NCBI GenBank assembly: GCA_947626095.1 | Contig: CANQQV010000001.1 | Location: forward strand, 32,001-96,000 | From: an uncultured Bacilli bacterium | GTDB lineage: Bacteria > Bacillota_I > Bacilli_A > RF39 > UBA660 | Length of the DNA stretch: 64,000 nt | Direction: 5' to 3' | In this document: positions 3,588 through 21,315 of the stretch, piece after piece | Layout: each line of letters starts with the position of its first letter | How positions within the stretch are numbered: the stretch's first letter is position 1 | Made by a program: the position numbers and the translations under genes | Notes under the pieces: model-generated | What the model was told of the DNA's origin: nothing | Seen by the model: the letters and a program-made list of their open reading frames with translations, nothing else | Database searches by the model: none

Positions 3588-3666
3588 CGCCCTTCACCAC
3601 TTCTAATTATATACCAATTAATCTCTATTTTATCTCGACTTATGGTTTAGTAAATATTTTTCTAAC

Positions 3667-3691
3667 AAAAAAGTACTCACTTGAGTACTTT
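3667..3691 (-). terminator. Intrinsic terminator
   Basis: AAAGTACTCA-CT-TGAGTACTTT hairpin with an A-tract on + (T-tract on -), just after the 3690..6197 stop. Confidence 0.6.
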
Positions 3692-6197
3692 AATATTCTT
3701 TTACTTCATTCTTAGCTATATCATATACATACGTTTTAATATCATCTTCAAAACCATTAGATCCTACTATAAAAGAATAAAATGAATAATATATTTTACC
3801 TTTATAATATAATCTATTATATATATAAGAATAATCTTTAAAACTTATTTTATCTAATACTTTATTATCAAACGAATTATTAATTACTTTAGCATATTCA
3901 TCATATCTAGTAGTTGAATTTTTATTTAAATTACTAGGTAACAATGAACTAATAAAATAAGCAAATACTTCATCATCATACCATTTAGTATCTTTTTCTT
4001 GTTCATATAATTTAATAAGCATATCTATATAATACATTGTTTCTTTATCCGAATTATCATCAATATGAAAACGATCAGTTAATTCATTAAATTTAATAAT
4101 ATCATCATATGTATAACCAGCCTGAGTAAATTTCTTAAATAATGGATATTTACCTTCTCTACCAAAGAATAAGTTTCTAACAAAATCATCTCCATATAAA
4201 TAACTTAACATATTATACATCATAACTTGTTTAGGATATGTTCCACTAACCATATCATTAAGATAAATAGACGAATTATATTCTGCTCCTCCTTCTACTA
4301 AGAAATTAAAATCAAATCCTAATAAAGCTTCTACCTTTTTCTTCTCTGTGCTTGATAATTTTTCATACTCACTTTCTGAAATATAATCACCTAAATACTT
4401 ATAAACCCCAATCGATGTTAAACTACCTTCTCTATTAATACAATCATCAACAAAATGCGTAAATTCATGATTTATAGTCGAATCATTAACTGGTATTAAT
4501 AATTCAATATTTATCTTATCATTATAATATACTCCCGCTGTATTTTCTTCTTTCATTTCATAAACATCTTTAATAATTAATTGTTTTAAACGATATAAGA
4601 AATAATCTTTATCTAAATGTTCTTTATTAGCAATCACTTCTTGATAACCTAACAAAATATTTCTTTTATAATTCCCTATCCCATTACTATTTTCTACTAC
4701 ATACGCATATTGCTTAAAAAATTCTTGATCTATCTTAATTTCTTCTTTAATACTATCTAACTCATATTTGGTAATTATTTTATCAATATCTATCTTATTA
4801 TAATCATCTACTTTTGAATGTAATTTTTCTTGATTTAAATAATTACCATCCCCTAATAAAAAGTAATCTATTTTATATGAATCTTCAGCTACAATAGCTT
4901 TATCAAATAACTGAATATTATTATATACCGGTTCTATTAATACATTATTCCCATATAATAAACCATATAATCTATCTTTTTCTACATAGCAATAAGATCC
5001 ATTACATTCTATATCATCATATTTATCTGTTACTAGTTTAAAAGATTCATCTACTAAATACCCAGTATCATCATCATGACATACATACAAGTTATCTTTA
5101 TAATAAGAAAACCCATTCTGACAAGTATGATCTACTTTTTCATTCTTTTCATTATAAATAGTTAACTCATCAGTATTAGAATCAACATAATATTTACCAA
5201 CCTTTACTCTTTCTTCTATTTCACCATCAACTAAATAATGCATATCATTATTATCATCTATTATATATAAGTTATCATACGCATCATAATAAACAGATAT
5301 AAAACACTTATCACTAAGTAACTTATTATCTTTAGCTAATTTAAAACCTTTATTACAAGCTGTAAAATCAAATTGATACCCTTGATAATTAATTTTATCT
5401 TCATACTTTATTATATCGGAATTTAAATAAAGATATTTATCACTACCTTGATATAATATTCTTCCTAAGTCACTATCTTCATATTTCGTATATTTATTTA
5501 ATTCATCTTTTTCTGTATCAAGATAATAATAATTATTTTTAATTTCTATTTCTACATATTTATTCATTTTATAATAGCTTATTATATCTATAACTTCATT
5601 AGTCTTTAAATTTATTAGCTTTCCCTTAGTATCATCAGTATATATTACATAAGAGCCATATACATTAAATCTAAAAGAAAATACACTAGTATCTACTCCT
5701 TTAAATAAATCTTTATATATTAATTTATTATCTTCATCATATAAACTATTTTCATATACATAATAACTTTTATTATTATGCCAATCATTACTTATCATAA
5801 TAATATTATTAGATGTTCTAACCAGTTCTCCATTAATATTAAATAGTTTATATTCATCATCTATTTTATAACTATATAACTTAATAATATCCTCTGCTGT
5901 AAATTCTATATTTGCTAAATCTTCTTCTTTAATTTCTATTTCAAACTTTTTATTACCTGTTTCTTTATCAAAAGCAATATACTTATTACCATTATTAATA
6001 TAATAATTAATTTGTTTTACTGAATCATAAGTATAACCAACATATTCTTCTTTACTAACAATATTGTGTTTGAAAAATTGTTCACTATTTGTTTTTTCTA
6101 AATTTTGTTCAAAAATTAAAAAACCATCAATACATATTAAAACAACAAATAATAATCCACTGATAATAATAGCTATATCCTTCTTCTTCATTTTCAC
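3690..6197 (-). CDS. Membrane-anchored extracellular protein with beta-repeat region and C-terminal HEXXH zinc-metallopeptidase-like domain
   Basis: N-terminal TM anchor; WG-repeat-like segment (YGLLYGNNVLIEPVY); TINHEFTHF followed by LVEGGAE (gluzincin-like third ligand). Confidence 0.6.
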   Translation of the reverse strand: MKMKKKDIAIIISGLLFVVLICIDGFLIFEQNLEKTNSEQFFKHNIVSKEEYVGYTYDSVKQINYYINNGNKYIAFDKETGNKKFEIEIKEEDLANIEFTAEDIIKLYSYKIDDEYKLFNINGELVRTSNNIIMISNDWHNNKSYYVYENSLYDEDNKLIYKDLFKGVDTSVFSFRFNVYGSYVIYTDDTKGKLINLKTNEVIDIISYYKMNKYVEIEIKNNYYYLDTEKDELNKYTKYEDSDLGRILYQGSDKYLYLNSDIIKYEDKINYQGYQFDFTACNKGFKLAKDNKLLSDKCFISVYYDAYDNLYIIDDNNDMHYLVDGEIEERVKVGKYYVDSNTDELTIYNEKNEKVDHTCQNGFSYYKDNLYVCHDDDTGYLVDESFKLVTDKYDDIECNGSYCYVEKDRLYGLLYGNNVLIEPVYNNIQLFDKAIVAEDSYKIDYFLLGDGNYLNQEKLHSKVDDYNKIDIDKIITKYELDSIKEEIKIDQEFFKQYAYVVENSNGIGNYKRNILLGYQEVIANKEHLDKDYFLYRLKQLIIKDVYEMKEENTAGVYYNDKINIELLIPVNDSTINHEFTHFVDDCINREGSLTSIGVYKYLGDYISESEYEKLSSTEKKKVEALLGFDFNFLVEGGAEYNSSIYLNDMVSGTYPKQVMMYNMLSYLYGDDFVRNLFFGREGKYPLFKKFTQAGYTYDDIIKFNELTDRFHIDDNSDKETMYYIDMLIKLYEQEKDTKWYDDEVFAYFISSLLPSNLNKNSTTRYDEYAKVINNSFDNKVLDKISFKDYSYIYNRLYYKGKIYYSFYSFIVGSNGFEDDIKTYVYDIAKNEVKEY

Positions 6198-6346
6198 ACC
6201 AACTCTTATATAATACGAATATTATAACAAATAAAATACTTCAATACTATTTCTAACTATATTAATTATTAGTTAAATTTTTTTACACCAAAAAACATCT
6301 AATACCATTATCTCTATTTTATATGATATAATGAAAAAGAATATAG

Positions 6347-9187
6347 GTGATGTTTATGAAAAAGAAAAAATATAAATTTTTAATCAACTTAAGTATAATT
6401 GTTACCTTTTTACTATTTATTTCTATTTATACATATAATAGTCTTAATTTAACAATTTCTAACTCTGCTACAACTTCTCCTACACCTATAGCAACTAATT
6501 CATATACAAGAAAAGAATTACAAAATATGGTAGTAGCTACTGCTAAAAGCTTTTATTATAATGGTAAATACTCTGACTATGAACAACATGGTATGGACAA
6601 TAAAGTAAAAGTCCCAAGTAGTGCTGATAGTGCTTTTTCTAGTTTCGCTTGGCGAAATTTAAATATAACACCTGAAGCAGTAAGTAGATCAAACCGATAT
6701 GCTACCGATTGCTCTGGTCTTATCTTTGCGATATATAATTCTACTTTAGGATATGACTTTTATAATTTAATTCAAAATTATATGGTTGAACAAAATAATT
6801 ATATAAAAACTGATGGTAGTCTATCACATGGTAAAACTAGTCATAACAACTATATAGAATCACTTAATTATGGAATTGGCCCATCAACCTTTAATTTTGT
6901 TAATGCTTCTCGTGTCAAAAATTCAGGTGTTAAAACAGATAGCTCAGTAGTTTACTATTATAACTTCTCTTCAACATATTATTATACAGATACTACTAAA
7001 ACTTATACTAAAGAAAAGAAAACGATAGAAACAGTAGAAAATAATATTCACAACACTCTCCAACCAGGAGACATATATGTTTATCGTCGTAAAAATAACA
7101 GTACTGGCGTATATAGTGGTCATGTCGTCATCTATATAGGCAATAATGAATTTGTTCAATCTATCGGCGATGACTATCCAATTAGTACTAGTGGCGTCGT
7201 TTCAGACTACAAAAAAATGGTTGAATCTGGTCCTAACCACGATACTTCAGTTGTTTTAAGTACTTGGGATGCTGATAGTAGCAAAAATTCAAGAGGAATT
7301 AAAAATTTAAGCCTTCATGATAGTACAACAACTCCTACTGAAGTCGTTATTTTAAGACCGATAAATAACTACTGTAATGGTAATAATTGTACTATTAATA
7401 CTTTAAATGAAAATGCTAAAGCTAGAGCTCAACTAAGTGATGTTGCCATTGAACAATGGATGAGTGAACTAACACCAATCTCTAAAATTATAACTCAATA
7501 TAATTCAGTTAATGTTGGTGACAAAGTTGTCTTCTATTTAGAATTTAATAATAAATCTTCTAGTTCTAAAACAATCAGTGAAATAAGTGTTGAAAGACCA
7601 AATAATACAGAATTTTCATCTGCAGCAAGTGGTTATTCAGGCAAAGATAAAATAGTATGGAAAAATATAACTATTCCTGCTAATTCTAAAAAACAAATAT
7701 TCTACGCTGTCAAAATTTCAAAGAATAGTAACATAACTCATCCTGGCTATAAAATAACAGTTAATGGTACTACTTTAAAAATGGCCAGTCTAACAGTCAC
7801 TGTAAATAATACTATTAATAGCACAAGCGATATTAAACAACTTCAAAATATTGAACCATCAATCACCGCCGATGATGAACTAGAGGCAATTAAAAAAATA
7901 TATAAAAACGGCTTAAAAATGGATATAGATGAAATTGGCACTTACAGTGATATCCAAAAAGATGTTTTCACTAAATATCAGAATAATTACTTTACAAAAA
8001 GTACATCAAACGCAAAAACAAATAAAATGGTTGTTCCAGGTTTATATGGTGGTCGTTTATTAAAAGGTGATACAACCAAAGATCGTGTTAAACTATTTAC
8101 TTTATCTTCTTTAGAAGCTGGAGATATCATCATAACATGGAAAGGTGACACAACTGCCGCTTTCATGTATAATGGTCAAAATAGTGAACAAAGATTCCAA
8201 ATAGCTAGATATCTAGCTGATGAAAAAACTGGTCAAGAGAGAATAATGTATTATAACGATAAACAAGATGAAAAAGATAAAAGTAAAATCATTGAAAACG
8301 CTAACCAAATATTTAGAGAAATCTTTTCTAAAGACTTATTTGTTGTTTTAAGACCAAGTCGTGTTGTTAGTCTTCCATCTAAAACAACAACGACAAAACC
8401 TAGTACAGGTAATAACACTACACCTTCAACTGGTAACAATACAAAACCTTCTACTAACAACAATAACAGCAACAATAACAGCAATAATAATAATAATAGT
8501 AGTAACAACAATACTACAAATAATAACAATAATTCTAGTAATCAAGAAAACAATAATTCAGAAAATGAAACTCCAGAAATTGTTAGTGAAAAAATTGAAG
8601 TTCAAGCTAAAAAAGGTTCTAAATTACCAAACTTAGAGACTCCAAAAAGAACAGGTTATTCCTTTGAAGGTTATTATTCAGAAACAAATGGTAATGGCAC
8701 TAAATATTATAATTCTACTGGAACTAGCGATATTATATGGAATCAAAATTCCACAACTGTCTCAATGTATTCCAACTGGACCCCAAACAAATACACCATA
8801 ACTTATGATTCCAATGGCGGTAAAGGTAATACTACAAATTCTAATCACGTCTACGATTCAAAACAAAAATTAAGTAAAAACACCTATAGCAAAGAAGGCT
8901 ATACATTCCTTGGTTGGAGTACAGATAAAAATGCTACAACAGCTGAATTTTTAGATGAAGAAGTAATAGTTAATTTAACAAGTAATCCAAATGACAATGT
9001 TACATTATATGCTGTTTGGATAGACGATAATGACTTACTACCAAATAAAAATTATATTAATGCTGAAGAGAAAAAAGAAACAGTTAAAGATGCTGGTAGA
9101 ACAAGTAAAATAATTATAATTTCTATTTTAATCATTATTACTTTAAGCATTTTAGGTTACTCGCTTACCAAACTTCTTAAAAGATAA
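6347..9187 (+). CDS. Surface protein with NlpC/P60-like domain, Ig-like domain, Asn-rich linker, InlB B-repeats and C-terminal TM
   Basis: ATDCSGLI (catalytic Cys), LQPGDI and GHVVIYIGNNEFV (His); TPKRTGYSFEGYY and YTFLGWST..VTLYAVW B-repeat motifs; C-terminal TM plus KR. Confidence 0.7.
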   Translation: MMFMKKKKYKFLINLSIIVTFLLFISIYTYNSLNLTISNSATTSPTPIATNSYTRKELQNMVVATAKSFYYNGKYSDYEQHGMDNKVKVPSSADSAFSSFAWRNLNITPEAVSRSNRYATDCSGLIFAIYNSTLGYDFYNLIQNYMVEQNNYIKTDGSLSHGKTSHNNYIESLNYGIGPSTFNFVNASRVKNSGVKTDSSVVYYYNFSSTYYYTDTTKTYTKEKKTIETVENNIHNTLQPGDIYVYRRKNNSTGVYSGHVVIYIGNNEFVQSIGDDYPISTSGVVSDYKKMVESGPNHDTSVVLSTWDADSSKNSRGIKNLSLHDSTTTPTEVVILRPINNYCNGNNCTINTLNENAKARAQLSDVAIEQWMSELTPISKIITQYNSVNVGDKVVFYLEFNNKSSSSKTISEISVERPNNTEFSSAASGYSGKDKIVWKNITIPANSKKQIFYAVKISKNSNITHPGYKITVNGTTLKMASLTVTVNNTINSTSDIKQLQNIEPSITADDELEAIKKIYKNGLKMDIDEIGTYSDIQKDVFTKYQNNYFTKSTSNAKTNKMVVPGLYGGRLLKGDTTKDRVKLFTLSSLEAGDIIITWKGDTTAAFMYNGQNSEQRFQIARYLADEKTGQERIMYYNDKQDEKDKSKIIENANQIFREIFSKDLFVVLRPSRVVSLPSKTTTTKPSTGNNTTPSTGNNTKPSTNNNNSNNNSNNNNNSSNNNTTNNNNNSSNQENNNSENETPEIVSEKIEVQAKKGSKLPNLETPKRTGYSFEGYYSETNGNGTKYYNSTGTSDIIWNQNSTTVSMYSNWTPNKYTITYDSNGGKGNTTNSNHVYDSKQKLSKNTYSKEGYTFLGWSTDKNATTAEFLDEEVIVNLTSNPNDNVTLYAVWIDDNDLLPNKNYINAEEKKETVKDAGRTSKIIIISILIIITLSILGYSLTKLLKR

Positions 9188-9209
9188 GAAATCATTCTTA
9201 TCTTTTTTT
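9183..9209 (+). terminator. Intrinsic terminator
   Basis: GATAAGAA-ATCA-TTCTTATC hairpin followed by a T-run. Confidence 0.6.
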
Positions 9210-9264
9210 AATCAAAATTTGGCAAATTTAAAAATCTTTGTTATATTTTTTATAGGGTGATTAG

Positions 9265-10248
9265 ATGGGTGTTATAACAAAAAGACAATTAACAGCTTTA
9301 CTAACTGGCACTTTAATAGCTGCTAATACTTTTTCTATGTCTACTCACTACTCTAATCTACATCTTAAAAACGCTTACCAATTAACTTCAACAACTGTAT
9401 ATGCTTCATCATATGATTATGCAAACTATCAAGATTTAATGACTGAAACTAACATTCAAGTTCCAATCTATAATGCCATGGTTCCTCAAGGTTTAACCAA
9501 AGTAAACGACAACTTTCTAATGAGTTCATATGATTATAGCAAAACAAGTCCATCAACTATCTATATATATGATAATAATGGCAATCTAGTAAATGAATGT
9601 CCTTTAGATAATAAATCTCATGTTGGTGGTATTTCATACGATCAAAAAAATGATTTAATATGGGTTGCAAGTAGTAGCGGCTATATTAATTCCTATCCAT
9701 GTTCTTCTATCTTCAATTCTTCACAAGAGACTAAATACCAAAATACTTTTAATGTTGGTGAAGGATGTAAAAATTATATTTATCCATGGAAAAATGCCAT
9801 ATCATATTTATCTGTTGATAACAATTATCTATACGTAGGTAGTTTCTCTTTATATAAAAATGGCTTAGTAAAAAAATATTTGATCGAAAACAAAGATGGT
9901 GATATTAATTTATCTTTAGTTAATACTTTTAAAGTTCCAACTAAAGTTCAAGGTTTAACTATCTATCATAAAAATGACCAAGACTACTTAATCCTTAGTC
10001 GATCTTTTGGTGAAAATAATCCATCTATTCTACAAATATATAAATATCAGGAAGACATAGATGATTATACTAATCCTCAAATAAAGAGCGTATGCTATAA
10101 AACAGATGCAATGATGGAACAAATAATTATCGATAACGACTATCTATATGCTGTATTTGAATCATCAGCTTATCCATATCGTTATAGTCCATCAAGCGCT
10201 GATCATCTTCAAAAAACCGATATGTCTTTAGTCTTACTACCTAAATAA
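9265..10248 (+). CDS. Secreted beta-propeller-like protein of unknown function
   Basis: Signal peptide; repeated blade motifs VPQGLT, SHVGGISYD, KVQGLTI; overlaps the LSR1 stop by 12 bp (convergent). Confidence 0.55.
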   Translation: MGVITKRQLTALLTGTLIAANTFSMSTHYSNLHLKNAYQLTSTTVYASSYDYANYQDLMTETNIQVPIYNAMVPQGLTKVNDNFLMSSYDYSKTSPSTIYIYDNNGNLVNECPLDNKSHVGGISYDQKNDLIWVASSSGYINSYPCSSIFNSSQETKYQNTFNVGEGCKNYIYPWKNAISYLSVDNNYLYVGSFSLYKNGLVKKYLIENKDGDINLSLVNTFKVPTKVQGLTIYHKNDQDYLILSRSFGENNPSILQIYKYQEDIDDYTNPQIKSVCYKTDAMMEQIIIDNDYLYAVFESSAYPYRYSPSSADHLQKTDMSLVLLPK

Positions 10249-11859
10249 TACCTTTACTTCATAATATACTATATATCTTTTAGTTCCCTTAGTATCAAAT
10301 CCTCTTTTAAATTCATAATTATCATTCACTTGTTTATTAAAATAATTTAAATAAATATCTAATATTATTTTACTATCTACTTTATCTACTTCTATTCTCT
10401 TAAGTAATAAACTAATTACATTCTCTAAAATATTATCTATCTTAACTTTAGCTTCTATTACTTCTTTTAATTTAATAATACTTCTATCTTCTTTATTTAA
10501 CTCATCTATCTTTTGTTCTAATAACTTTACCTTTTCATTAAATTCATTATTTTTCTTTTTAAATTCTCTATCACTTATAAGCTCATTTATCTTTAAATCT
10601 AACAACTTATCTTTCTTTATATTTATTCTATTTATTTCCTTTAATATGTCTTTATCTTTCTTACTATCTCTATTTAACTCTTTATAATAATTAACTAAGA
10701 TACTAACAACTTCTTTTAAATTAATATCTAACTTTTTTATTATATCTTTAAATATATAATTAAGTTCTGACTCTCTTATATTAGCTGAATCACAATATTC
10801 TTTACCATATCTTAAATATTCCGAACAAACCCAAGTAACATCTTTATTACTACATCTAAATATTCGCCGATAATATAAAGTCTTATGCTTCTTACAATAT
10901 ATCTTCGAACTATATAAATATTTATTATGATAACTATTTATCTTTTTCTTTCTTGCTTCTAATCTTTGATTAGCTATCTCCCATAACTTATCATCAATAA
11001 TTGGTGGTATTTTTTCTTTGTCTTCATACATTATCCATTCATCTTTTTTAAAGTATTTAATTCTTTTTGTCATATAATCTTCTACTTCTATTTTTTTTCC
11101 ACAATAAAAACCTTTATACTTAGGATTTTCTATCATTCTTGAAATAGTAGCTACTGACCACTTACTACCTTCTCTAGATAATATCTTATCTCTATTTAAT
11201 CTTTTACCTATTTCTGATAATGATAACTTATCTACCACATACCATTCAAATATCTTTCTTACTACTTTAGCTTCTTCATTTATAATAACTAACTTCTTTG
11301 TATTCTTATCTTTTCTATAACCATATAATAAATTATTACCTAGTATTTCTCCTCTTAAAATAGCTCTATTCATCCCAAACTTAACTCTTTCTGATAATCT
11401 TCTTATTTCATCCTGTGCCATTGAAGCCATTATTGTAAGTCTTAATTCTGCATCCGGTAAAGCCGTATTAATATTATCATTAAGAAATAAAACAGCTACC
11501 CCATAAGAAAGTAATTCTCTTGTATATTTAATACTATCTAAGGTATTTCTAGAAAACCTCGATATTTCTTTAGTAACTATTAAATCAAATTTATTCTTTT
11601 TAGCATCTTCTATCATTTTCATAAAGTTATCTCTTTTAATATCACTAGTTCCCGTAATACCTTCATCAATATATCCTGGTATATAAGTCCAATTAGGATT
11701 ATCTTTAATCATTTCTTCAAAATGTTCTTTTTGATTTATTAATGACTTCTTCTGTTCTATATGATTAGTTGAAACTCTCACATAATCAGTTACTCTTAAT
11801 TTAATATTAGTAAGTGAAACTCCCATACTTAATTCTTTACGTACTTGATATAAATCCAT
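10237..11859 (-). CDS. Large serine recombinase LSR1 (resolvase + recombinase + Zn-ribbon + coiled coil; SpoIVCA/CisA-like architecture)
   Basis: YVRVST catalytic Ser, DEGITGT, KEISRFSRN, AQDEIRRLSERVKFG, LYGY, IENPKYKG, PPIID, CxxH...C Zn ribbon. Confidence 0.95.
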   Translation of the reverse strand: MDLYQVRKELSMGVSLTNIKLRVTDYVRVSTNHIEQKKSLINQKEHFEEMIKDNPNWTYIPGYIDEGITGTSDIKRDNFMKMIEDAKKNKFDLIVTKEISRFSRNTLDSIKYTRELLSYGVAVLFLNDNINTALPDAELRLTIMASMAQDEIRRLSERVKFGMNRAILRGEILGNNLLYGYRKDKNTKKLVIINEEAKVVRKIFEWYVVDKLSLSEIGKRLNRDKILSREGSKWSVATISRMIENPKYKGFYCGKKIEVEDYMTKRIKYFKKDEWIMYEDKEKIPPIIDDKLWEIANQRLEARKKKINSYHNKYLYSSKIYCKKHKTLYYRRIFRCSNKDVTWVCSEYLRYGKEYCDSANIRESELNYIFKDIIKKLDINLKEVVSILVNYYKELNRDSKKDKDILKEINRINIKKDKLLDLKINELISDREFKKKNNEFNEKVKLLEQKIDELNKEDRSIIKLKEVIEAKVKIDNILENVISLLLKRIEVDKVDSKIILDIYLNYFNKQVNDNYEFKRGFDTKGTKRYIVYYEVKVLFR

Positions 11860-11987
11860 TATTCTTTTCCTAACTCCCCAAGTATTTTATTTTCAACTAT
11901 TTTATAATCTTGATAATTTATCATTCCATCTGTGTATAACTCTCTATTTATTAACAAAGCTATTTCTAAATATAATCTATTATTCAC
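11859..11987 (-). CDS. 42-aa small ORF coupled to LSR1 (SHOCT-like; candidate recombination directionality/accessory factor)
   Basis: GTG start at 11987 after an AAGTGA RBS-like motif: MNNRLYLEIALLINRELYTDGMINYQDYKIVENKILGELGKE*. Its TAA overlaps the LSR1 ATG (TAATG). Below the ORF-track size cutoff. Confidence 0.65.
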   Translation of the reverse strand: MNNRLYLEIALLINRELYTDGMINYQDYKIVENKILGELGKE

Positions 11988-12055
11988 AATTCATCACTTA
12001 CTTAAAGCTATGAATAATAACCATTATTTAGTACTTTCTTACTCTTACATTAAGT

Positions 12056-12463
12056 GAACCAAATGCAACAAAGTTAGAAAAAGAAGGTTTAGGTTATGTC
12101 GTTGGAAGTATTGGTGAATTATCTGGTGAAATGCCATATACTGCTTTCTATGCTCGTCAAAGTTATCTAGATAAAAATGAAGATCTAATAAAAAAATTTA
12201 ACAATGCTATTAATAAAGGTTTAGATTATGTTAAAACGCATAATGAAAAAGAAATTGCAAAAATCATACTACCACAATTTCCAGATACCTCACTTAATGA
12301 TATTGAAGCAATTGTTAAAAGATATAAAGATGCTGATTCATGGCTTAATAATACAACCATAAGTGAAGAATCATATCGAAATTTAGAGAATATAATGATA
12401 GATAATGATTTATTAGATGATTACGTTCCATTTAAAGATTTAGTAATTAATTTAAATGACTAA
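12056..12463 (+). CDS. 3' fragment (135 aa) of a NitT/TauT (NMT1/THI5-like, YtlA-like) ABC substrate-binding protein gene; 5' part separated
   Basis: Frame reads EPNATKLEKEGLGYVVGSIGELSGEMPYTAFYARQSY..., matching the conserved (F)EP..LEKEG.GY.V.S.G..SG..PYT region. Similarity stops just upstream, with an in-frame TAG at 12029-12031 and no signal peptide or start. Confidence 0.85.
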   Translation, partial: EPNATKLEKEGLGYVVGSIGELSGEMPYTAFYARQSYLDKNEDLIKKFNNAINKGLDYVKTHNEKEIAKIILPQFPDTSLNDIEAIVKRYKDADSWLNNTTISEESYRNLENIMIDNDLLDDYVPFKDLVINLND

Positions 12464-12876
12464 AATCTTAGAAGTTAAAAATATAAGTAAAAAGTTTAAT
12501 ACTACTAAAGGTGAAATAGAAGCTATTAAAGATATTAGTTTTACTGTTAATGAAGGAGAATTTATTGCCATAGTTGGCACCTCAGGTTGTGGTAAAAGTA
12601 CCTTACTTTCCATTTTAGCTAATCTAACCAATCAAACTAATGGTTCTATTAAATATTATAAAGATAATCCTATTATTGGTTACATGCTCCAAGAAGATGC
12701 TTTATTTGAACATTTAAAGATCATTGATAATGTTTATCTCGGTTTAAAAGTTCAACATAAATTAACCGAAGATAACAAACAATATGCTTTAGACTTATTA
12801 AAAAAATATAACTTAGATAAATTCATTAATCAAAAACCAAGCGAATTATCTGGTGGTATGAAACAAAGAGTTGCTT
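12456..12876 (+). CDS. 5' half of a split NitT/TauT ABC ATPase (YtlC-like)
   Basis: Walker A GTSGCGKST, Q-loop YMLQED and signature LSGGMKQRVA, then an abrupt TGA created at the element junction; no Walker B or H-loop. Confidence 0.92.
12864..12876 (+). repeat. Left attachment core (attL) CAAAGAGTTGCTT
   Basis: Identical to 20974-20986; in frame with the ATPase (codons Q-R-V-A-L). Confidence 0.9.
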
Positions 12877-12901
12877 GAATACTACAAACACACTTTCACA
12901 T

Positions 12902-12932
12902 AAAAAAACTGATAAAATTATTTATCAGTTTT
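12902..12932 (-). terminator. Intrinsic terminator closing the cargo operon just inside the left element end
   Basis: AAAACTGATAAA-ATTA-TTTATCAGTTTT hairpin with a T-tract on the minus strand. Confidence 0.6.
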
Positions 12933-13922
12933 AATATCTTTAACTTTTTTAGGTTTTATTGCTAAGAAACAAATTGTTCCCGCTATACCTACTAAAGCAA
13001 CTCCAATAACAATCTCAACTATTTTAGAAATTAAACTATCATCATCTTCTGAATCAGTAGATTCTTCATCACTACCATCTTTATCTTCAGTATCATCATC
13101 TGTATCATAGTCATAATCATAATCACCATTATCATTGTTATCATCGTCATCTTGTTTATCATCATCTGTAGACGTTTTATCATCAGAGCTGTTATCATTT
13201 TGATTACTACCATTATTTCCTGAATTGTTTGCTGAACTATTATTGTTATTATTTGATCCATTATTAGAACTTCCCGAATTTGAATTATTACCAGAAGATC
13301 CATTATTATTTGAACCACTATTATTACCAGAAGATTGATTATTATTTTTATCATCATCTTTACTATCATCTGGTTTACTATCTTCACCAGGTTTCTTATC
13401 GTCTTTATCTTCTGTTGTACTACTTACTTTAAAAGTAAATGATTTATCTTTACTTTCTGGAGCAACAGTATTTAATTTCCAAGTATTATCTAGAATCATT
13501 AATTTAGTACACTCTAAACTATACTTCACTTCTTTTGTAGTACCATTTTCAAAAATAATGTTACCTATAACTAGTTCTTTATTGATATTTAATAAATTAT
13601 TTTTATTACTAACTCCACCAGTTGTTACTTTAATGTTTATTGTTTTATTTTTCTCATCATGTGTAACATTTTGTGTATATTCTTTTTTAGTTAGTCCACT
13701 ATCTAAGTTAATCTGTTTGTATTTAACGTTACCACTATATTTAAGTGTTATATCAATACCACCAACAAATCCATCTTCAAAATGAATAGAAGTTTTAATG
13801 TTTCCGTTACTAGTCTCATCAAACACCATTTTAGTAGCAGCTTTAACAGAAGTAAGTGAGATAAAGATGCTTATAAGAAGCAATCCAATAGTTGTAATTA
13901 TTCTCTTTTGCATCTTTATCAT
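12918..13922 (-). CDS. Membrane-anchored cohesin-like scaffold protein
   Basis: Signal peptide (..VKA), about 140-aa beta-sandwich with cohesin-like patterns (GIDITLKYS, KELVIGNIIF), long N/S/G/D-rich linker, C-terminal TM plus basic tail; 4-bp overlap with the upstream dockerin-bearing gene. Confidence 0.55.
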   Translation of the reverse strand: MIKMQKRIITTIGLLLISIFISLTSVKAATKMVFDETSNGNIKTSIHFEDGFVGGIDITLKYSGNVKYKQINLDSGLTKKEYTQNVTHDEKNKTINIKVTTGGVSNKNNLLNINKELVIGNIIFENGTTKEVKYSLECTKLMILDNTWKLNTVAPESKDKSFTFKVSSTTEDKDDKKPGEDSKPDDSKDDDKNNNQSSGNNSGSNNNGSSGNNSNSGSSNNGSNNNNNSSANNSGNNGSNQNDNSSDDKTSTDDDKQDDDDNNDNGDYDYDYDTDDDTEDKDGSDEESTDSEDDDSLISKIVEIVIGVALVGIAGTICFLAIKPKKVKDIKTDK

Positions 13923-16900
13923 CTCCTATCAGTTATTTGCATTCCTGGTAAATTATCATAAGGAACTAAATTATTAACAGTTTTCGATGTACTAGTTAAT
14001 CTTTGACCATCATTTGTCTCTGCATCATTGACACGATATAAATATGCGCGAATAGCTTCTGCATCAGTTAGCATTTTTTCATATTCTTCTTTACTCATAA
14101 TGTATAACCAAGTACCATCAGCAACTTCATATACCGAGCGATCACTATTTAATGTCGCAAATATTAGCTCTTCACCAGCATAAACAATTGTTTCGTTATT
14201 AGCTTTACCAATTAGTATTGCATTCAATGCAGGATTACCACGATATGATCCTTGAATTACAACTGAACCAGCTTTTATTACGCCCTTCTTACCTATTACC
14301 TTGCCATTTTTATCTACTTCGTCTTTTTCACATTCTTTTTCATCTGTTAAGTAACAATAATCACTTTCTAACTTACCTACAGTGGTAATATCAACATTAT
14401 CTCCAGGAGGAGCAATGACATCAATCTCTGCTCCAGATAAACTAGTCTTACTATCAGATTCTATCTTGATATAATTAATTTTATTATAAGTCCATAATTG
14501 ATTCTTGCTATCAGTACCTTCTTTCATAAAGTAAATAGTATCTTCAAGAGTTTCATCACTACCTACTGAAGTGTTAAATGTACCAACAGCTGCTTGTTTC
14601 CAACTATTATTTTCACCATCTTCACTTACATAAATCTTATATTTAGTAATTGTATTAGGATCTATTTGTCCATCAGTAACTAAAGCACGATACTTAATAC
14701 CACTTACAGACATTGGATTATTTAAATTAATAATTACATAAGCATTACCATTATCAGTAGTCATACTAGGTATTTGATTAGCATCATACTTTAATGTTGG
14801 AATCTTCTTAGTACCAATAAAACCAGTATTAATATTGCCATCAATTAAGTTATTAACGCTTAATTTAGAATAATCAAAGTCTTTATCTTCATAATCAACT
14901 TCTTCATTTTCTGCTTGTACATTTGATGAAATAGTAAATGCATCTTTCTTAACACTACCATCATGAGCTATCTTAACTTCTGGTAGAACTACTTCATTAG
15001 TTTTATTTAAATAATAATCATAAGCAACAACTGAATATGTATAAGCACGATTATTTTCTGCTCCTACATTATCAACAAAACTACTTACACCATCTTCATT
15101 TTCTACAAAACCAATAGAAACACCATTACGTAATATTTCAAATCCTAAAATTTTATCGCTATCTTTATTTAAATTAAAATTAATAGTTACACGTTTATCT
15201 TTACTACTAGCTTCAACAACACTAGCTTCTAGAATTTCAGCTCCTTCGCTAATACTTCCAACTTTAGCTAACTTTTGACGCCATGCATTATCATTTAAAT
15301 AATAAATAGCTCTAGTTTCTTTTGAAATACCTTCAATTGAATCAATTTCTTTTTTCAATTTATCATTTGTAACTTTTAATCCCCAAGCTTCAAAGAAATC
15401 TGTTAAATCCTTTTTCGTTGCCATTGAAGCAAACAAGATTGTTAATTCATCTCTTGAATAATTATTTTCATTTTTATAATTTCTTGCAATTCTATTTACC
15501 TTAGCATAGATAGAATTTTCATCTTTAAATGTTTTACCTTCATCATAAGCTAAATGTAATTGCCAATACATACCTAATTGAACAAATACATTTTGTGCTC
15601 GACCAGTCGTATGTGATGTAACTTTTTCATAAATCTTATCATAACCTTGATTTTCTAAACGAGATTCATCATGATCATTACTTGTTTGCGCAAGTAAAGC
15701 ATAAATATTATTTGTAACTTCAGCAAATACTGTATCTTTTAAATTGATTTGGTGTCCAACTTCATGGCTAATTCCCCAACCAAAGTATCCAGTTTTACTA
15801 TCAGTATTTCTACTAGCTTGAACAAGTCCAGCAATTGAACCATATTCAATACCAACATGGTAACCACCAGCATACATAAATGCTCCATAGAACATTTGCA
15901 TGTAGCGAATATTAATTCTAGCTTTAGGCATTCTATCAGTCGATTTTGTATCGTCTGTTTCAATAAATCCTTTTTGACGATAGAAGAAATCCATCATTTC
16001 GTCAAATGCTTCCATAGATTCATATAATCTATTAACTTTTTGTTCTAATGTAGTATTATCATTTTTTAATGCCTCTTCAACAGCAACACTAGATACAGAA
16101 AATAATCCATATTTTGTAACAATTTCTGTTGATCCTAAAACACTAGAAGATTTATCAAATTTACCATCTATTAATTTATTTTCATCAGCATAAACTTTAT
16201 ATTCTGTTCTTAATTTACTATTATATGCTTCTAATTCATTAATATATTCTCTAATTGCATTTTTCTTTTCATCTGTGCTAGTTAGATTAGTTGTATCAAC
16301 CATTGGTATTTTAGTACCACCACTAACACGTACTCTAATCGGCGTATTAGCATTTGGAGTTGATGTATAACGTATATAAACGCTACCACCACGTTCAGCA
16401 TCAGATGCAGAACCAATTTGTTGTATCTCAATTACATTTAATCCTCTTTTTAGTTTCCCAGCTGATTTTTGCCATGCAGCAGCTTCAGCATGATATTGTG
16501 TATATATTAATTCAGCTGTAACATAACCATTTCTATCAACTGGTGCATCACTAGCAACATAGACATTTAGTTTTTCACCAGGTCTAGCTACTATTCCTAA
16601 TGGTTGATAATCACTAATTGTCATTGCAAATCTAACATGATTATTATAATAATTTGATATATTTGGATTTAAAGTAATTATATCATCTATTTTTTCATCA
16701 TTTAAAATCTTTTGTGCATATTCTAAATCTGCTAAAATACTTTCTTTATAAGGATTATCTTCACCATGATCTTGTTCTTCTGCTCTTGCTTTCAACTCGT
16801 TTATCTTATTTTGATCTACATTTTCTTTTAATGTTAATCTAAAGTCATCAGCAAATAAAGCAGCCACCTCATCAACTAATGAATCATACTGATAAAATTT

Positions 16901-19180
16901 AACTTCATCTATTTTTATATCACGTTGATTATTAGCAACAGTTAAACCAAAAGCAACCGCTTTAGCTTCAATAGGATCTTCAAGTTTTAATAAATAATAA
17001 GTACGACCTTGTTTATCAGTTTTAGCTGTTAAAGTACCTGGTACTTCTTGACGATCTTTATTATCATAAATATCATGTGCATCAGCCCAATAATGTACTT
17101 TAATATCATTACTATTTGGTCCACCACTTTTTAATTTAGCACCATAATTATCTGGAATCGTTAAAACAAATTCATCCATTTTATACTTATTATCTAATAC
17201 AAATACTGGTGTTCCAGTATTATATCCATTACTAGCTGAAATCGTCCAATCACTATGATACCAATAAGTATTATAGTCATCATCAACCATTGAATACTTA
17301 TCACCATTAACCATTGTACCTGCTGTATAATGAACTTCTTCAACACGAACTGTCTTACCATCTTTAACTTCATCATTAATTAATTTATATCTAGGTACTA
17401 TAGCAGCACCTCCAACTAAAGTTCTAGCTTCTACCATTGTATAACTATCACTTTCACCGATTGGATTAACACCTATTACATAAGCTTCATAAACTGTATC
17501 AGCATTTAATCCAGTAACAACATAACTATTATTTGTAAGGTTATCCACTAAATTAAACACAGATGTACCTTTTTCACGCCAATATAATTTATAAGATGTT
17601 GTATCATCCATTTTTTTCCAAGAATAAGTAATTTTACCATAACCAGGAGTTGCACTAACATTATCTACTTTTGGTGCTTTACCAGAAGCTTTAGGTGTAC
17701 CTTCATGTTCATCACTCCAGCCACTACGCCATTCTTGATTAGTTGATCTAACTTTTATTTTATAAGTTACATAGTTCTTTAAATCTTCAATCGTAAATTC
17801 AGAGAATGTTGTTTGGAATACTACACCATTTTTAGTACCACCATTAATTTCAATTTCATAACCTGTTACATTAGGAACATCTTGAAATTTAATTGTTAAT
17901 TGTTCACTTTTTGAATCATCAATACGAATATTTTGTGGTGTATAGAATCCCTCTGGTTCTTTTGTTTCTACCTTAACATTATTTAAGAATTCTACTTTAG
18001 CTATATCAGCTAAAGTATTTGAAGAAGTCTCAGTAATAACTATTGTTACTTTTTTAACAGCTACTTGACTGCCTAAATCAACTTTAATAGTTCCTTCAGC
18101 TACTTCATCAGTAAACTTATGAACTCCTTCTTCAGCCTTAGGTGTTGTATTATCAACCACGTATTCATGAGTCTCACCTTCACTGTCTTCTACATATAAT
18201 TTCATTTTTTGTGGTACATTATCTTGTCCAACAGCTATTCTTATTTCACTCATTTCAATAGTTTCTGATTGTTTACTACCTAAATCTAAAGCTAACTTAA
18301 CTGGATTATCTTCTGAAATAGAACCTTCACTATCACTTTTTAGTTGTACTACCTCATTTGAATCAATAAATATATTACTTATGTCACTACCTTCTACAAT
18401 ACTAGTACCTTGTGGTAATTCTACAGCTACATTATCATTACTCATAATTGCACTAGTATCCTCAATTAGTAATTCACCTTTAGAAGAATTCATAACTGCT
18501 GTAATATAATTTAAATCAGCTATATCTACAACACCATCTAGATTTAAATCCTTACTAGTATCGTTATTTTCAATAGCTTCAATCATTATTTTTTCATCTG
18601 CTTCATTTACTTTATTATCGTGATTAACATCACCTATTTCAAATAAACCAGCCGTATTAGATAAACTAACTCTTTTTGAAAAATCTTTTAATGTTACTGG
18701 AACGCTATAAGTAACAAAGTTAGTTCCACTAAATTCTAATGTATATTTACCAGTCTTTAATGAATATAAATTAATACTATAATAAACAATATTATCTTCA
18801 TTTTCACCAGATATGACATTTCCATTAAAATCACGTTTAGTAATTAAAACACGAATATTTTGTTCTTCACCTATATTAACAGTTGTGTTATAAATACCAC
18901 TTTGATCTTTTTCAACGTCATCTAATTTTATTGACCCTTTATTATTATTTTCGTCAATAACACTTAAAGTAATATTTGATTTATTTTTATTTCTAATTGG
19001 TAAAGCTAATTGAAGTTCAACTTCAATATTTCCTTTAGCTTCAATGTTATCTAACTGTACACTATGGGCGACTTCATTATTTAACCCATCCATCGCCATT
19101 ACGATTAATGGCGAAAAACTATTAAATAGCATTGCAACTACCAATAAAATTGATAATATTTTGTTCCATATTTTAATCAT
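13919..19180 (-). CDS. Secreted M60-family (enhancin-like) metallopeptidase with dockerin, FN3 and discoidin/CBM32-like domains
   Basis: WGISHEVGHQ..FAEVTNN M60 motif (about 15752-15766); YQPLGIVARPGE and RGGSVYI M60-like N-domain; dockerin repeats GDVNHDNKVNEAD / DLNLDGVVDIADL (about 18490-18634); FN3 signatures LKNYVTYKIKV and LNADTVYEAYV. Confidence 0.88.
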   Translation of the reverse strand: MIKIWNKILSILLVVAMLFNSFSPLIVMAMDGLNNEVAHSVQLDNIEAKGNIEVELQLALPIRNKNKSNITLSVIDENNNKGSIKLDDVEKDQSGIYNTTVNIGEEQNIRVLITKRDFNGNVISGENEDNIVYYSINLYSLKTGKYTLEFSGTNFVTYSVPVTLKDFSKRVSLSNTAGLFEIGDVNHDNKVNEADEKIMIEAIENNDTSKDLNLDGVVDIADLNYITAVMNSSKGELLIEDTSAIMSNDNVAVELPQGTSIVEGSDISNIFIDSNEVVQLKSDSEGSISEDNPVKLALDLGSKQSETIEMSEIRIAVGQDNVPQKMKLYVEDSEGETHEYVVDNTTPKAEEGVHKFTDEVAEGTIKVDLGSQVAVKKVTIVITETSSNTLADIAKVEFLNNVKVETKEPEGFYTPQNIRIDDSKSEQLTIKFQDVPNVTGYEIEINGGTKNGVVFQTTFSEFTIEDLKNYVTYKIKVRSTNQEWRSGWSDEHEGTPKASGKAPKVDNVSATPGYGKITYSWKKMDDTTSYKLYWREKGTSVFNLVDNLTNNSYVVTGLNADTVYEAYVIGVNPIGESDSYTMVEARTLVGGAAIVPRYKLINDEVKDGKTVRVEEVHYTAGTMVNGDKYSMVDDDYNTYWYHSDWTISASNGYNTGTPVFVLDNKYKMDEFVLTIPDNYGAKLKSGGPNSNDIKVHYWADAHDIYDNKDRQEVPGTLTAKTDKQGRTYYLLKLEDPIEAKAVAFGLTVANNQRDIKIDEVKFYQYDSLVDEVAALFADDFRLTLKENVDQNKINELKARAEEQDHGEDNPYKESILADLEYAQKILNDEKIDDIITLNPNISNYYNNHVRFAMTISDYQPLGIVARPGEKLNVYVASDAPVDRNGYVTAELIYTQYHAEAAAWQKSAGKLKRGLNVIEIQQIGSASDAERGGSVYIRYTSTPNANTPIRVRVSGGTKIPMVDTTNLTSTDEKKNAIREYINELEAYNSKLRTEYKVYADENKLIDGKFDKSSSVLGSTEIVTKYGLFSVSSVAVEEALKNDNTTLEQKVNRLYESMEAFDEMMDFFYRQKGFIETDDTKSTDRMPKARINIRYMQMFYGAFMYAGGYHVGIEYGSIAGLVQASRNTDSKTGYFGWGISHEVGHQINLKDTVFAEVTNNIYALLAQTSNDHDESRLENQGYDKIYEKVTSHTTGRAQNVFVQLGMYWQLHLAYDEGKTFKDENSIYAKVNRIARNYKNENNYSRDELTILFASMATKKDLTDFFEAWGLKVTNDKLKKEIDSIEGISKETRAIYYLNDNAWRQKLAKVGSISEGAEILEASVVEASSKDKRVTINFNLNKDSDKILGFEILRNGVSIGFVENEDGVSSFVDNVGAENNRAYTYSVVAYDYYLNKTNEVVLPEVKIAHDGSVKKDAFTISSNVQAENEEVDYEDKDFDYSKLSVNNLIDGNINTGFIGTKKIPTLKYDANQIPSMTTDNGNAYVIINLNNPMSVSGIKYRALVTDGQIDPNTITKYKIYVSEDGENNSWKQAAVGTFNTSVGSDETLEDTIYFMKEGTDSKNQLWTYNKINYIKIESDSKTSLSGAEIDVIAPPGDNVDITTVGKLESDYCYLTDEKECEKDEVDKNGKVIGKKGVIKAGSVVIQGSYRGNPALNAILIGKANNETIVYAGEELIFATLNSDRSVYEVADGTWLYIMSKEEYEKMLTDAEAIRAYLYRVNDAETNDGQRLTSTSKTVNNLVPYDNLPGMQITDRR

Positions 19181-19358
19181 AATTTCACCTCGCTAATATT
19201 ATATATTATGACTAAATTTCTGACAATAGAATTTTGCAATTTTTTCCCTAAAATACCCTAAAAAGTTCTATATATTAAATTCTTTAATACAATAATATTA
19301 AGTTTTAAAATTTTTATAACTGTTTATAACGATTATATAAATAAAAGGTGAATAAAAA

Positions 19359-19460
19359 ATGTCATATAAAATTATTAATTTATATCAAAATATAAACTCT
19401 GAAATTATTAATTATAAACTATCACTTATTCTTAAATTAATGGAGTCAAATAATGATTAA
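19359..19460 (+). CDS. 33-aa small ORF overlapping the LSR2 start (candidate directionality/accessory factor)
   Basis: AAAAGGTGA RBS then ATG: MSYKIINLYQNINSEIINYKLSLILKLMESNND*; overlaps the LSR2 ATG by 8 bp. Confidence 0.5.
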   Translation: MSYKIINLYQNINSEIINYKLSLILKLMESNND

Positions 19461-20958
19461 AGTTGGTATATATTTAAGATTATCTAAAGAAGATAAAGAT
19501 AAAATAAATATTGAAGACAATAGTGAATCTATTAAAAACCAACGTCATCTTCTTTTAGATTACATCTCTAAACATCAAGATTACATCTTAGTAAATGAAT
19601 ATTGTGATGAAGATTTATCTGGTGCCGGTACATATCGTCCTGAATTTACCAGATTAATTAAAGATTGTGAAAACCACAAACTAGATCTTGTCCTTTGTAA
19701 AAGTCAATCAAGATTCTCTCGTGATATGGAAGTAATTGAAAAATACTTACATAACAAGTTTAATGAATGGCACATTAGATTTATTAGTTTAGCTGATAAT
19801 GCTGATACTAATAATCTCGGTAATAAAAAAGCTCGTCAGATAAATGGTTTAGTTAATGAATGGTATTTAGAAGATATTTCAAATAATATCCGTAGTGCTT
19901 TTAATATTAAAATGAAACAAGGTGAATATATCTCACCTTTTGCTCCTTATGGTTATGAAATATCTTCTAAAGATAATAATAAACTTATTATTGATCCTAT
20001 TGCTTCTTACATAGTAAAAGATATTTATACTTTCTACTTAAAAGGTTATAGCTATACAAAAATAGCTAATTACTTAAATAATAAAAATATCCCTAGTCCC
20101 TCATACTATAAATATCTAAAAGGTAGTAAATTAAATATCATCAGTAATAAACCTCGTAAAGATATTCTCTGGTCTCCTAATGCTATAAAACATATTTTAA
20201 CTAATGAAATATATATTGGTAACTTAGTTCAAGGTAAAAGAACAACTATTAGTTATAAAAATCATAAAATAATTACTAAAGAACAAAGTAAATGGATTAA
20301 GTCATTAAATACCCATGAACCAATAATAAATAAAGATACTTTTACTAAAGTCCAAGAATTAATTAAGCAAAAAGCAAGACCTCTAAAAAACAACAAAATT
20401 ATTCACTCTTTTTCTCATAAAGTCTATTGCCTTCATTGTCACCATTTAATGCGTAAGAAAAATTCTCATACTCACGAATATCTTTTCTGTCCTAATCCTA
20501 ATTGTTCTAACACTTCCATTAGATATGATACTTTAGAACAAATAATCTTATCTAAAATAAATAACTTAGTTAAAAAATACTATAACAAAGATTTACTTAA
20601 TAAATATCTCAATAACCAAGATCAATTAAATAATTTAATAAAAGAACAAAAAGATTTAGAAACTAAAATAATTAATCACCAAAATATCTTATTTAGTATT
20701 TACGAAGATAGATTAAATAAGCTTCTTACTACTACTGAGTTTAAAGACCTAACAACTAACTACCAAAAAAGAAAAACTATCTACCAAAAACAACTAAACC
20801 AAATTACAAAGCAAATCTCTTTATATAATCCCCCTTCTCTTAACTTTAAATCATTTACTAAACTAAATTATCTTATAACTAATGAATTTATCTCTAAGAT
20901 CTTCATTAGTTCAATAAAAAACCAAGTAAGAACAATTAATATTATCTGGAACTTTTAG
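19453..20958 (+). CDS. Large serine recombinase LSR2 (TnpX/SpoIVCA-like architecture)
   Basis: YLRLSKED catalytic Ser, SESIKNQ, DEDLSGA, KSQSRFSRD, APYGY, ILTNEIYIG, THEPII, CLHC..CPNPNC Zn ribbon, coiled coil. Confidence 0.95.
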   Translation: MIKVGIYLRLSKEDKDKINIEDNSESIKNQRHLLLDYISKHQDYILVNEYCDEDLSGAGTYRPEFTRLIKDCENHKLDLVLCKSQSRFSRDMEVIEKYLHNKFNEWHIRFISLADNADTNNLGNKKARQINGLVNEWYLEDISNNIRSAFNIKMKQGEYISPFAPYGYEISSKDNNKLIIDPIASYIVKDIYTFYLKGYSYTKIANYLNNKNIPSPSYYKYLKGSKLNIISNKPRKDILWSPNAIKHILTNEIYIGNLVQGKRTTISYKNHKIITKEQSKWIKSLNTHEPIINKDTFTKVQELIKQKARPLKNNKIIHSFSHKVYCLHCHHLMRKKNSHTHEYLFCPNPNCSNTSIRYDTLEQIILSKINNLVKKYYNKDLLNKYLNNQDQLNNLIKEQKDLETKIINHQNILFSIYEDRLNKLLTTTEFKDLTTNYQKRKTIYQKQLNQITKQISLYNPPSLNFKSFTKLNYLITNEFISKIFISSIKNQVRTINIIWNF

Positions 20959-20973
20959 TGTCTTTACTACTTT

Positions 20974-20986
20974 CAAAGAGTTGCTT
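20974..20986 (+). repeat. Right attachment core (attR) CAAAGAGTTGCTT
   Basis: Identical to 12864-12876; followed by TAATCAGAACACTAGCT (L-I-R-T-L-A). Confidence 0.9.
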
Positions 20987-21315
20987 TAATCAGAACACTA
21001 GCTATTAAACCTGATATTCTTCTTTTAGACGAACCATTTTCCGCTTTAGATTTTCCAACTAGTCTCGAAGTAAGTAATGATGTCTATAAAATAATTAAAA
21101 ATGAAAAGAAAACTGCTATTATGGTTACTCATGATATTGCATCAGCCATTAGTATGGCTGATAAGATAATTGTCTTAAGTAAAAGTCCAGCGATAATTAA
21201 AAATATCTATGATATAAACTTAGATAATAAAGATATTCCTACCACTAATCGTCAGGATAATAAATTTAATTACTATTATGATTTAATATGGAAAGATCTT
21301 GATAACATTGTCTAA
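20974..21315 (+). CDS. 3' half of the split NitT/TauT ABC ATPase (YtlC-like)
   Basis: [26 protein letters not shown] (Walker B and D-loop) ... MVTHD (H-loop); in frame with the track ORF 21121..21315. Confidence 0.92.
   Translation, partial: [113 protein letters not shown]

Follow-up and report, generated by a model that had tools for sequence, protein, structure and literature searches.

Positions 12029–12463 of the stretch analyzed here raise the question of how an ATP-binding cassette (ABC) substrate-binding protein (SBP) gene can be intact from a conserved motif to its stop codon with its first half missing, and where that half lies. The window is a stretch of 64,000 nucleotides from an uncultured Bacilli bacterium and corresponds to G000:C1:32001-96000, where G000 is the source genome, a metagenome-assembled genome (MAG) of 1.6 Mb in 34 contigs with ~26% G+C, 91% completeness, and 7.9% contamination. 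We consider it very probable that the region comprises the attR junction and the 3′ half of an SBP gene interrupted by a 20,252-bp nonphage element (element 1), and that this element and a second one in the adjacent ATPase gene (element 2) are long-term residents still able to excise.

The missing 5′ half and the junctions of element 1

The reading frame that ends with the stop codon at 12461–12463 is open from 12032 (143 codons), and an in-frame TAG inside the element-side arm shuts it on the 5′ side. The element-side string CTTTCTTACTCTTACATTAAGT occupies 12034–12055, and the codons GAA CCA follow from 12056. From the Pro codon at 12059 onward, the piece aligns to residues 197–330, 199–332, and 195–328 of three intact SBP homologs of 328–332 amino acids (P0129, P0131, and P0134, respectively). 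It matches NMT1_2 and NMT1 over the final third of each profile, with 17.8–21.2 bits on NMT1_2 (PF13379; profile positions 177–251 of 252), under the cut-off of 24.7. Its stop codon overlaps the start of the ATPase gene (ATG at 12456), and the cassette of the large serine recombinase (LSR) gene LSR1 starts 69 bp to the left with a 42-codon ORF. An earlier note on this window had listed a headless gene with an in-frame stop at 12029, similarity starting at GAA CCA, about 135 amino acids of a protein of about 330 left intact, an overlap with the ATPase start, and the LSR1 cassette about 70 bp away, and all of these features are present in the sequence (Table 1). Within window positions 11700–13000, promoter-like sites numbered 3 against 9.8 expected, and no terminators were found.

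The note had further proposed an att junction with a crossover near TGAACC, the 5′ coding half and the operon promoter being elsewhere; absence of a 5′ half, or an out-of-frame join, would have spoken against it. Neither was the case. A search of the whole genome with PF13379 detected one further SBP piece, the 5′ half, with 29.9 bits (cut-off 24.7) at profile positions 17–102. It is located on the same contig and strand, 20,252 bp upstream of the 3′ half and 8.2 kb left of the window. It covers residues 1–196, 1–198, or 1–194 of the three homologs, and the 3′ piece begins at the next residue in each. No residue is lost or gained, and the GAA codon is in frame in both halves, which together align over the whole length of the 328–332-residue proteins. 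The 5′ coding half, presumably together with the promoter, is away from the window, as proposed.

The left junction (attL1) reads ..CTATTTGAACTTAGTG.. and the right junction (attR1) reads ..CATTAAGTGAACCAAATG.., with TGAAC as the common core. Because GA are the only bases common to every attL/attR pair in the 10 split genomes described below, the crossover is assigned to this dinucleotide, which lies at G000:C1:23804-23805 in attL1, 8,196 bp left of window base 1. A nonpalindromic 2-bp crossover inside a short core, as is characteristic of LSR elements, is found at both junctions of element 1. The element-side arms had been expected to form an inverted repeat, and this holds for their inner part, where 8 of the 9 bases adjoining GA pair when the printed arms are read by eye. 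Across the whole arms, the best symmetry axis is also at GA, but just 12 of 22 bases pair in a script count, which is a weak statistic. The idea that element 1 donates a replacement 3′ end to the SBP was rejected, since only 3 codons are added in G000 and 5 residues in the sister species G005; the element-encoded tails on the other short 5′ forms shown are 4–22 residues long.

A second interruption in the same operon

The earlier note overlooked that the ATPase ORF (12456–12878) is also cut, after ..GGMKQRVA, and the recurrence of the split is not visible in the window. The ATPase gene is divided at QRVA|L by element 2, and the crossover GT is pinned by the junctions in G006, G010, and G034. 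The recombinase of this element, LSR2, is 23% identical to LSR1; both enzymes are intact and have catalytic-serine motifs. Pfam and NCBIfam matches identify the operon as a NitT/TauT-type importer.

Table 1. Coordinates of the split operon, its junctions, and the genes of the two elements (window positions unless a contig is given).
Feature	Position	Strand	Remarks
SBP 5′ half	G000:C1:23228-23806	+	193 codons ending ..GDFVNLFE, then 3 element-encoded codons (LSV) and stop
Element 1, in-window part	1..12055	.	whole element 20,252 bp
LSR1, large serine recombinase, 540 aa	10237..11859	-	Resolvase, Recombinase, and Zn_ribbon_recom domains; at attR edge
42-codon ORF	11859..11987	-	directly upstream of LSR1; stop overlaps LSR1 start by one base (TAATG)
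In-frame TAG	12029..12031	+	5′ of SBP 3′ half
attR of element 1	12034..12080	.	P arm ends ..CATTAAGT; crossover GA 12056-12057; B′ arm ACCAAATGC...
SBP 3′ half, NMT1/SsuA-type (NitT/TauT)	12056..12463	+	135 codons and stop
ABC ATPase gene, 5′ part	12456..12878	+	140 codons, ends ..LSGGMKQRVA, then element-encoded TGA
attL of element 2	12864..12876	.	13-bp core common with attR2; crossover GT 12870-12871
Element 2	12872..20981	.	8,110 bp
LSR2, 501 aa, element 2	19453-20958	+	
attR2 and ATPase 3′ part (QRVALIRTLAIKPD...)	20974..21315	+	core 20974-20986
Permease of the same operon	21299..22090	+	BPD_transp_1; TauC/SsuC/SaoP-like
Putative radical-SAM-like protein, element 1	3-359	-	extends past window edge
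DUF2207 protein, element 1	293-2395		
HTH regulator, element 1	2580-3587		
835-aa ORF, element 1			within in-window part
NlpC/P60 repeat protein, element 1	6347-9187		
327-aa ORF (orf327), element 1	9265-10248		
334-aa ORF (orf334), element 2	12918-13922	-	
M60/enhancin-like peptidase, 1753 aa, element 2	13919-19180	-	fn3 domains

Recurrence and empty sites in related genomes

Among 61 related genomes surveyed, 33 carry the SBP 3′ part. Its open frame is short (138–163 amino acids) in 10 of them and full length (306–354 amino acids) in the other 23. A separate 5′ half was found in all nine short cases besides G000, and an LSR1 ortholog (50–74% identity) lies between the halves on the opposite strand in 10/10 split genomes. 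The inserts measure 20.25, 16.8, 16.1, 8.5, 5.95, 4.4, 3.8, 3.2, and 2.95 kb, and the tenth is divided over two contigs. The junctions are in the same codon and identical to the base in all 10 genomes. The empty site (attB1, ..TTTGAACC(A/T)AATGC..) with a full-length SBP gene is present in 14 relatives, and an empty attB2 is present in 13. For the ATPase gene, 24 loci were examined, and 7 of these (G000, G005, G010, G018, G019, G034, and G006) are split at the QRVA|L site; an LSR2 ortholog was found in six, and the ATPase halves of G006 are on different contigs.

Database relatives of the SBP 5′ half point in the same direction. Among the best 120 of 7,485 clusters, short forms make up 40 and full-length forms 79, with a single intermediate one. 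Because 39 of these 40 short clusters end just past the same motif, (L/V/I/T)(F/L)(E/D), which is NLF(E/D) in nearly all rows shown, the break is no chance feature. The six closest clusters of this set (85–100% identity) are all short. A wider scan with the LSR1 alignment against one genome per species retained 80 loci, from records titled uncultured Bacilli, Mollicutes, or Candidatus Coprovivens MAGs and various Clostridia, and SBP halves were found in the 3-kb flanks of 26 of them. In an LSR tree of 65 rows, the SBP-flanked loci all fall in one 44-row clade (support 100), with 0/21 in its sister clade. LSR2 was surveyed in one genome from each of 150 genera in the family; halves of this ATPase gene lie beside 12 of the 17 LSR2 orthologs from other genera (53–71% identity) and beside 0/12 more distant relatives. 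The LSR1 relative at L067:3001-4593 contains one in-frame stop and is possibly a decayed copy; its 3-kb flanks showed no SBP half.

The sequencing data for the stretch are assembled contigs of five runs, and the short contigs of four of them (X1, X2, X4, and X5) were aligned to the window; X1 and X2 may be the source sample. In all four, contigs span attR1 and attR2 with the elements integrated, and an X1 contig also extends 25 letters past attL2. These contigs bear on the simplest explanation of the break, truncation to a pseudogene or mis-assembly of a MAG contig, which would suit both the provenance of the genome and a gene that is headless within the window alone. It was rejected as extremely improbable, given a 5′ half on the same contig and strand, its exact abutment on intact homologs, junctions that recur base for base in 10 genome assemblies, and the bridging contigs.

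Age of the elements and selection on the split genes

Elements 1 and 2 are both syntenic in the sister species G000, G005, and G010. The synonymous divergence (dS) of the element genes is similar to that of the host genes (Table 2), and therefore the elements and the host genes seem to have diverged together in these three species. The permease in the G005–G010 pair has a dS of 0.78 and a ratio of nonsynonymous to synonymous divergence (dN/dS) of 0.11. There is no stop codon in any of the split pieces. In neutral simulations with 0.3 substitutions/site, by comparison, a mean of 18 stops arose in 468 codons and 0/2000 runs stayed open; with 0.05 substitutions/site, 1.6% of runs stayed open. By these measures, the split transporter pieces are under purifying selection, and the selection is not relaxed.

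Table 2. Divergence of element and host genes, computed by NG86 in a genome of ~26% G+C.
Genes compared	dS	dN/dS
Host pieces joined (SBP-N, SBP-C, ATPase-N), G000/G005/G010	0.56-0.65	0.10-0.12
ATPase 3′ part, G000/G005/G010	0.61-0.74	0.13-0.17
LSR1, G000/G005/G010	0.62-0.65	0.27-0.29
M60 peptidase, G000/G005/G010	0.59-0.63	0.30-0.39
orf334, G000/G005/G010	0.62-0.73	0.45-0.59
orf327, G000/G005/G010	0.64-0.86	0.28-0.45
LSR2, G000/G005/G010	0.86-1.06	0.21-0.32
Intact-intact host pairs (comparison)	0.40-1.25	0.045-0.23

Several observations weigh against long residence and continued excision. The dS values were obtained by NG86 at this low G+C content, and YN00 estimates, where obtained, differed widely from them. 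At the left end of element 1, the ABC-2 genes (L015:3834-5393) have a dS of 0.17–0.18 between G000 and G010 (L017), with surroundings at ~0.6, and exchange has therefore affected parts of the elements at a later time. The split state is weakly clustered on a 24-row tree of the host locus (6 changes against a shuffled mean of 8.0; 57/500 shuffles as low), and in the LSR tree, the sequences of this genus are interspersed with LSRs from other genera. In one group of loci (L048–L058), the LSR genes are 85–96% identical in DNA and the adjoining SBP 5′ halves 67–79% (45 pairs without L057; the LSR identity of L057 pairs is 77–79%). Since the recombinases are here more alike than the host genes, the intact halves could merely reflect recent insertion. 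This pattern fits the recent horizontal spread of an ordinary mobile element, and the lineage is, judging from these identities, evidently still moving between hosts. Finally, no excised form (attB or attP) was seen in the short assembled contigs of the four runs; among 15 of 29 contig joints (sides of 20–33 letters, AT-rich), none is at 12871/20981 or 12056.

These points lend weight to a different account, in which both insertions are ordinary selfish elements that come and go at a favored intragenic attB within a dispensable operon, and selection on the halves is only apparent, arising from the youth of each insertion or from intact alleles recombining in. Apart from the L048–L058 lineage, where LSR identity is far over host identity, the patchy distribution implied by 6 changes on 24 rows and the full-length SBP frame in 23 of the 33 gene-bearing genomes agree with it. 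The syntenic elements of G000, G005, and G010, whose genes have the same dS as host genes, are difficult to reconcile with it, as are the six closest SBP clusters, all split, and the lack of any stop against a neutral mean of 18. We regard selfish elements as a serious possibility with somewhat less than an even chance.

LSR1 and its small partner gene

LSR1 matches the Pfam families PF00239 (2.2e-30), PF07508 (4.7e-23), and PF13408 (1.4e-5). Its catalytic Ser30, in ..VRVST.., is invariant across 27 relatives. The best NCBIfam matches are XisF of the fdxN element and the staphylococcal Ccr recombinases, with 92–100 bits against cut-offs of 375–900; because the scores are far under the cut-offs, LSR1 is not an equivalog of either. 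The position of the LSR gene differs between lineages. In G000, it is at the attR end, and in the L048–L058 sub-lineage, it is mostly at the attL end, with its 3′ end ~55 bp from the SBP 5′ half. In L058, the gene is further inside the element.

The small gene directly upstream of LSR1 is present as an ORF of at least 40 codons in 9/10 elements of the genus; in G007, the matching frame is open, with no ATG, GTG, or TTG start seen. Partner genes of 42–70 codons also occur in most of the wider LSR1 relatives. The 42-residue protein gave no match in Pfam, PHROG, or NCBIfam searches, and all 369 of its database relatives are unnamed or "hypothetical." A complex model of this protein with LSR1 scored 0.64, and the best of three controls scored 0.01. 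The score passes a mark that was reached by 58/80 solved complexes and 2/110 mismatched pairs, a calibration that is approximate here because custom alignments were used for the model. Three runs share at least 76% of contacts, and the pLDDT of the partner is at least 76. The predicted contacts on LSR1 are residues 379–395, 464–485, and 505–507, just past the zinc ribbon, a region that we interpret as the base of the coiled coil in LSR1. Known directionality factors bind the base of the LSR coiled coil. The passages of PMC12286644 drawn on here do not state the site. Complexes of LSRs with recombination directionality factors have already been solved, and the pass of the model may partly reflect likeness to these. 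Conserved beside LSR1 and predicted to bind it, the 42-residue protein is a candidate recombination directionality factor. The translational coupling of the small gene to LSR1 speaks against this role; a directionality factor needs to be absent during integration, and the arrangement is an unusual one for it. For LSR2, no small ORF of at least 35 codons is conserved in all six copies of element 2.

Other genes of the elements

The Pfam content of the elements consists of transporters, a toxin module of the type VII secretion system type, a peptidase, and the like. The left part of element 1 in G000 encodes an ABC-2 exporter pair and a 1343-residue protein with a C-terminal ADP-ribosyltransferase domain (PF03496), which adjoins two WXG100-type genes (L015:6137-11149 = G000:C1:26137-31149). 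This set resembles a polymorphic toxin module in the style of type VII secretion. In 6/10 LSR1 elements, there is a relative of the ADP-ribosyltransferase part with 262–264 residues; the copy that was scanned, in L020, matches PF03496 and is beside two WXG100-like genes. Other LSR1 elements carry a xanthine/uracil permease, a PfkB kinase, a PNP_UDP_1 phosphorylase, or an alpha/beta hydrolase. The cargo of the small elements (L018, L019, L021, and L023) is mostly of the salvage type, namely the permease, the kinase, and the phosphorylase. Accessory cargo that varies in this way, including the M60 peptidase of element 2, is a further argument for selfish elements.

The protein at the left edge of the window (3–359) is presumably radical-SAM-like, a label taken from its CxxxCxxC motif alone. 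A C-terminal Cys/Gly-rich peptide near 300–440 was considered as a separate precursor; it is in the frame of the DUF2207 ORF ending at 293 and was instead read as the tail of that protein.

Ten proteins, which covered part of the element-1 ORFs, were scanned against PHROGs, and no phage structural, packaging, or lysis genes of either element were found among them. The clear matches are to integrase and repressor-type regulator families only; two other proteins have weak matches (E 0.003–0.005) to a family of unknown function and a regulator family. As these 10 proteins include no structural, packaging, or lysis genes, element 1 does not qualify as a temperate prophage.

A third LSR gene of G000 (527 codons, C28:783-2366) is located near a contig end, just 3′ of a 145-codon collagen-like ORF with GPQ/GPT repeats (region C28:141-2366). 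It may mark another interrupted gene.

Proposed mechanism

The split anatomy, the empty sites, the recurrence, the codivergence, and the purifying selection are observed; the occurrence of excision, its timing, and the function of the small protein belong to the mechanism proposed here. Judging from the anatomy, LSR1 would have inserted element 1 by serine-recombinase exchange at GA within the Phe-Glu-Pro codons, and exact reversal of the insertion would restore a 328-residue SBP. The ATPase gene is cut independently, at GT in the QRVA|L codons, by the 8.1-kb element with the unrelated LSR2. As sequenced, the operon can make neither the SBP nor the ATPase. Both elements are probably long-term residents competent for excision, and the excision of element 1 by LSR1 may use the 42-residue protein as directionality factor. 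The transporter genes would then be restored in some cells or conditions, and hence be kept under selection.

A stronger form of this proposal, which we offer tentatively, is that a double DNA lock controls one nutrient-import operon in a family of uncultured gut Bacilli. The two elements, unrelated to each other, would each be specific to a single conserved run of codons (FE|P in the SBP and QRVA|L in the ATPase) and be inherited with the host across speciation, and both would have to excise to switch the transporter on, LSR1 acting through a new family of translationally coupled directionality factors of 42–70 residues. If true, programmed gene rearrangement would reach past its classical cases, the sporulation and heterocyst genes, with a possible tie to sporulation or nutrient state.

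A related explanation is that the elements are domesticated gene-intervening elements of a spore former, excised in the mother cell or under a set condition so that the transporter is switched on, and kept in the germ line. G000 encodes Spo0A_C (E 2.9e-33) and SpoIVA (SpoIVA_ATPase; E 6.7e-104), both above cut-offs, and the codivergence of elements and host, the unrelaxed selection on the split genes, and the split state of the six closest SBP clusters would all be expected. Some inserts are as short as 3–4 kb and, apart from a few cargo genes, consist of hardly more than the LSR and the small gene, with no transfer genes seen, and layout and size recall the gin element with its recombinase GirC and 42-residue GirX, as these are described in the passages of PMC5595907. 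However, the target is a NitT/TauT-type importer and not a known mother-cell gene, nothing links the operon to sporulation, and no sporulation-type promoter was shown, although no search for such promoters was made. The apparently recent mobility of the L048–L058 lineage and the intermixing of this genus with others in the LSR tree also count against it. That the host sporulates is in turn inferred from two markers, found in a MAG with 7.9% contamination. We consider programmed excision of this kind possible, though less likely than not.

These results have several consequences. What appears to be a dead transporter gene is a split gene, and in this lineage, many "truncated" ABC genes of MAG annotation are att junctions (40 short ones among the best 120 clusters listed). 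The locus supplies two natural sets of LSR, attB, and attP with crossovers known to the base, as well as a candidate directionality factor; such parts serve genome engineering. If excision is regulated, nutrient uptake in uncultured gut bacteria would join sporulation and heterocyst genes as a setting for DNA-rearrangement switches.

Comparison with known systems

A literature search, supplements excluded, found no report on this system. The closest likeness is to the gin element, which splits gerE of Bacillus cereus and encodes the recombinase GirC and the 42-residue directionality factor GirX (PMC5595907). In both cases, a nonphage element splits a coding gene, and an LSR exchanges strands at a central dinucleotide within an imperfect inverted repeat, as far as the passages of PMC5595907 describe it. 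According to the same passages, a very small protein without known motif is the directionality factor of gin; here, the 42-residue protein is a candidate for this role. The gene split by gin is a sporulation regulator, whereas the target here is a nutrient ABC importer (PMC5595907). Also unlike gin, as that source presents it, two unrelated LSR elements occupy two genes of one operon here, the small gene overlaps the LSR start, and the system is known from sequence alone.

The skin element in sigK and SPbeta in spsM (with SprA/SprB) of Bacillus subtilis and skinCd of Clostridioides difficile are likewise gene-interrupting LSR elements kept over evolutionary time, in the accounts drawn on here. 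Their precise excision with a directionality factor, which restores the genes, has been demonstrated according to these accounts, whereas excision is inferred in the present case. They are described there as (defective) prophages in mother-cell genes, in contrast to the elements reported here, for which a PHROG scan of 10 proteins found no phage structural genes.

In Listeria, an A118-type prophage uses a serine integrase site inside comK, and its reversible excision restores the gene, as shown experimentally ("active lysogeny"). The present elements are small cargo islands and not a prophage. The fdxN element with XisF in heterocystous cyanobacteria and the staphylococcal Ccr system also involve large serine recombinases that excise chromosomal elements, in different hosts and with different targets. 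The feature in this window belongs to a known class, the serine-recombinase gene-intervening or integrative elements, and is unusual within it in three respects: a single importer operon is locked twice and independently, the elements have persisted across speciation, and the small protein that accompanies LSR1 is unannotated.

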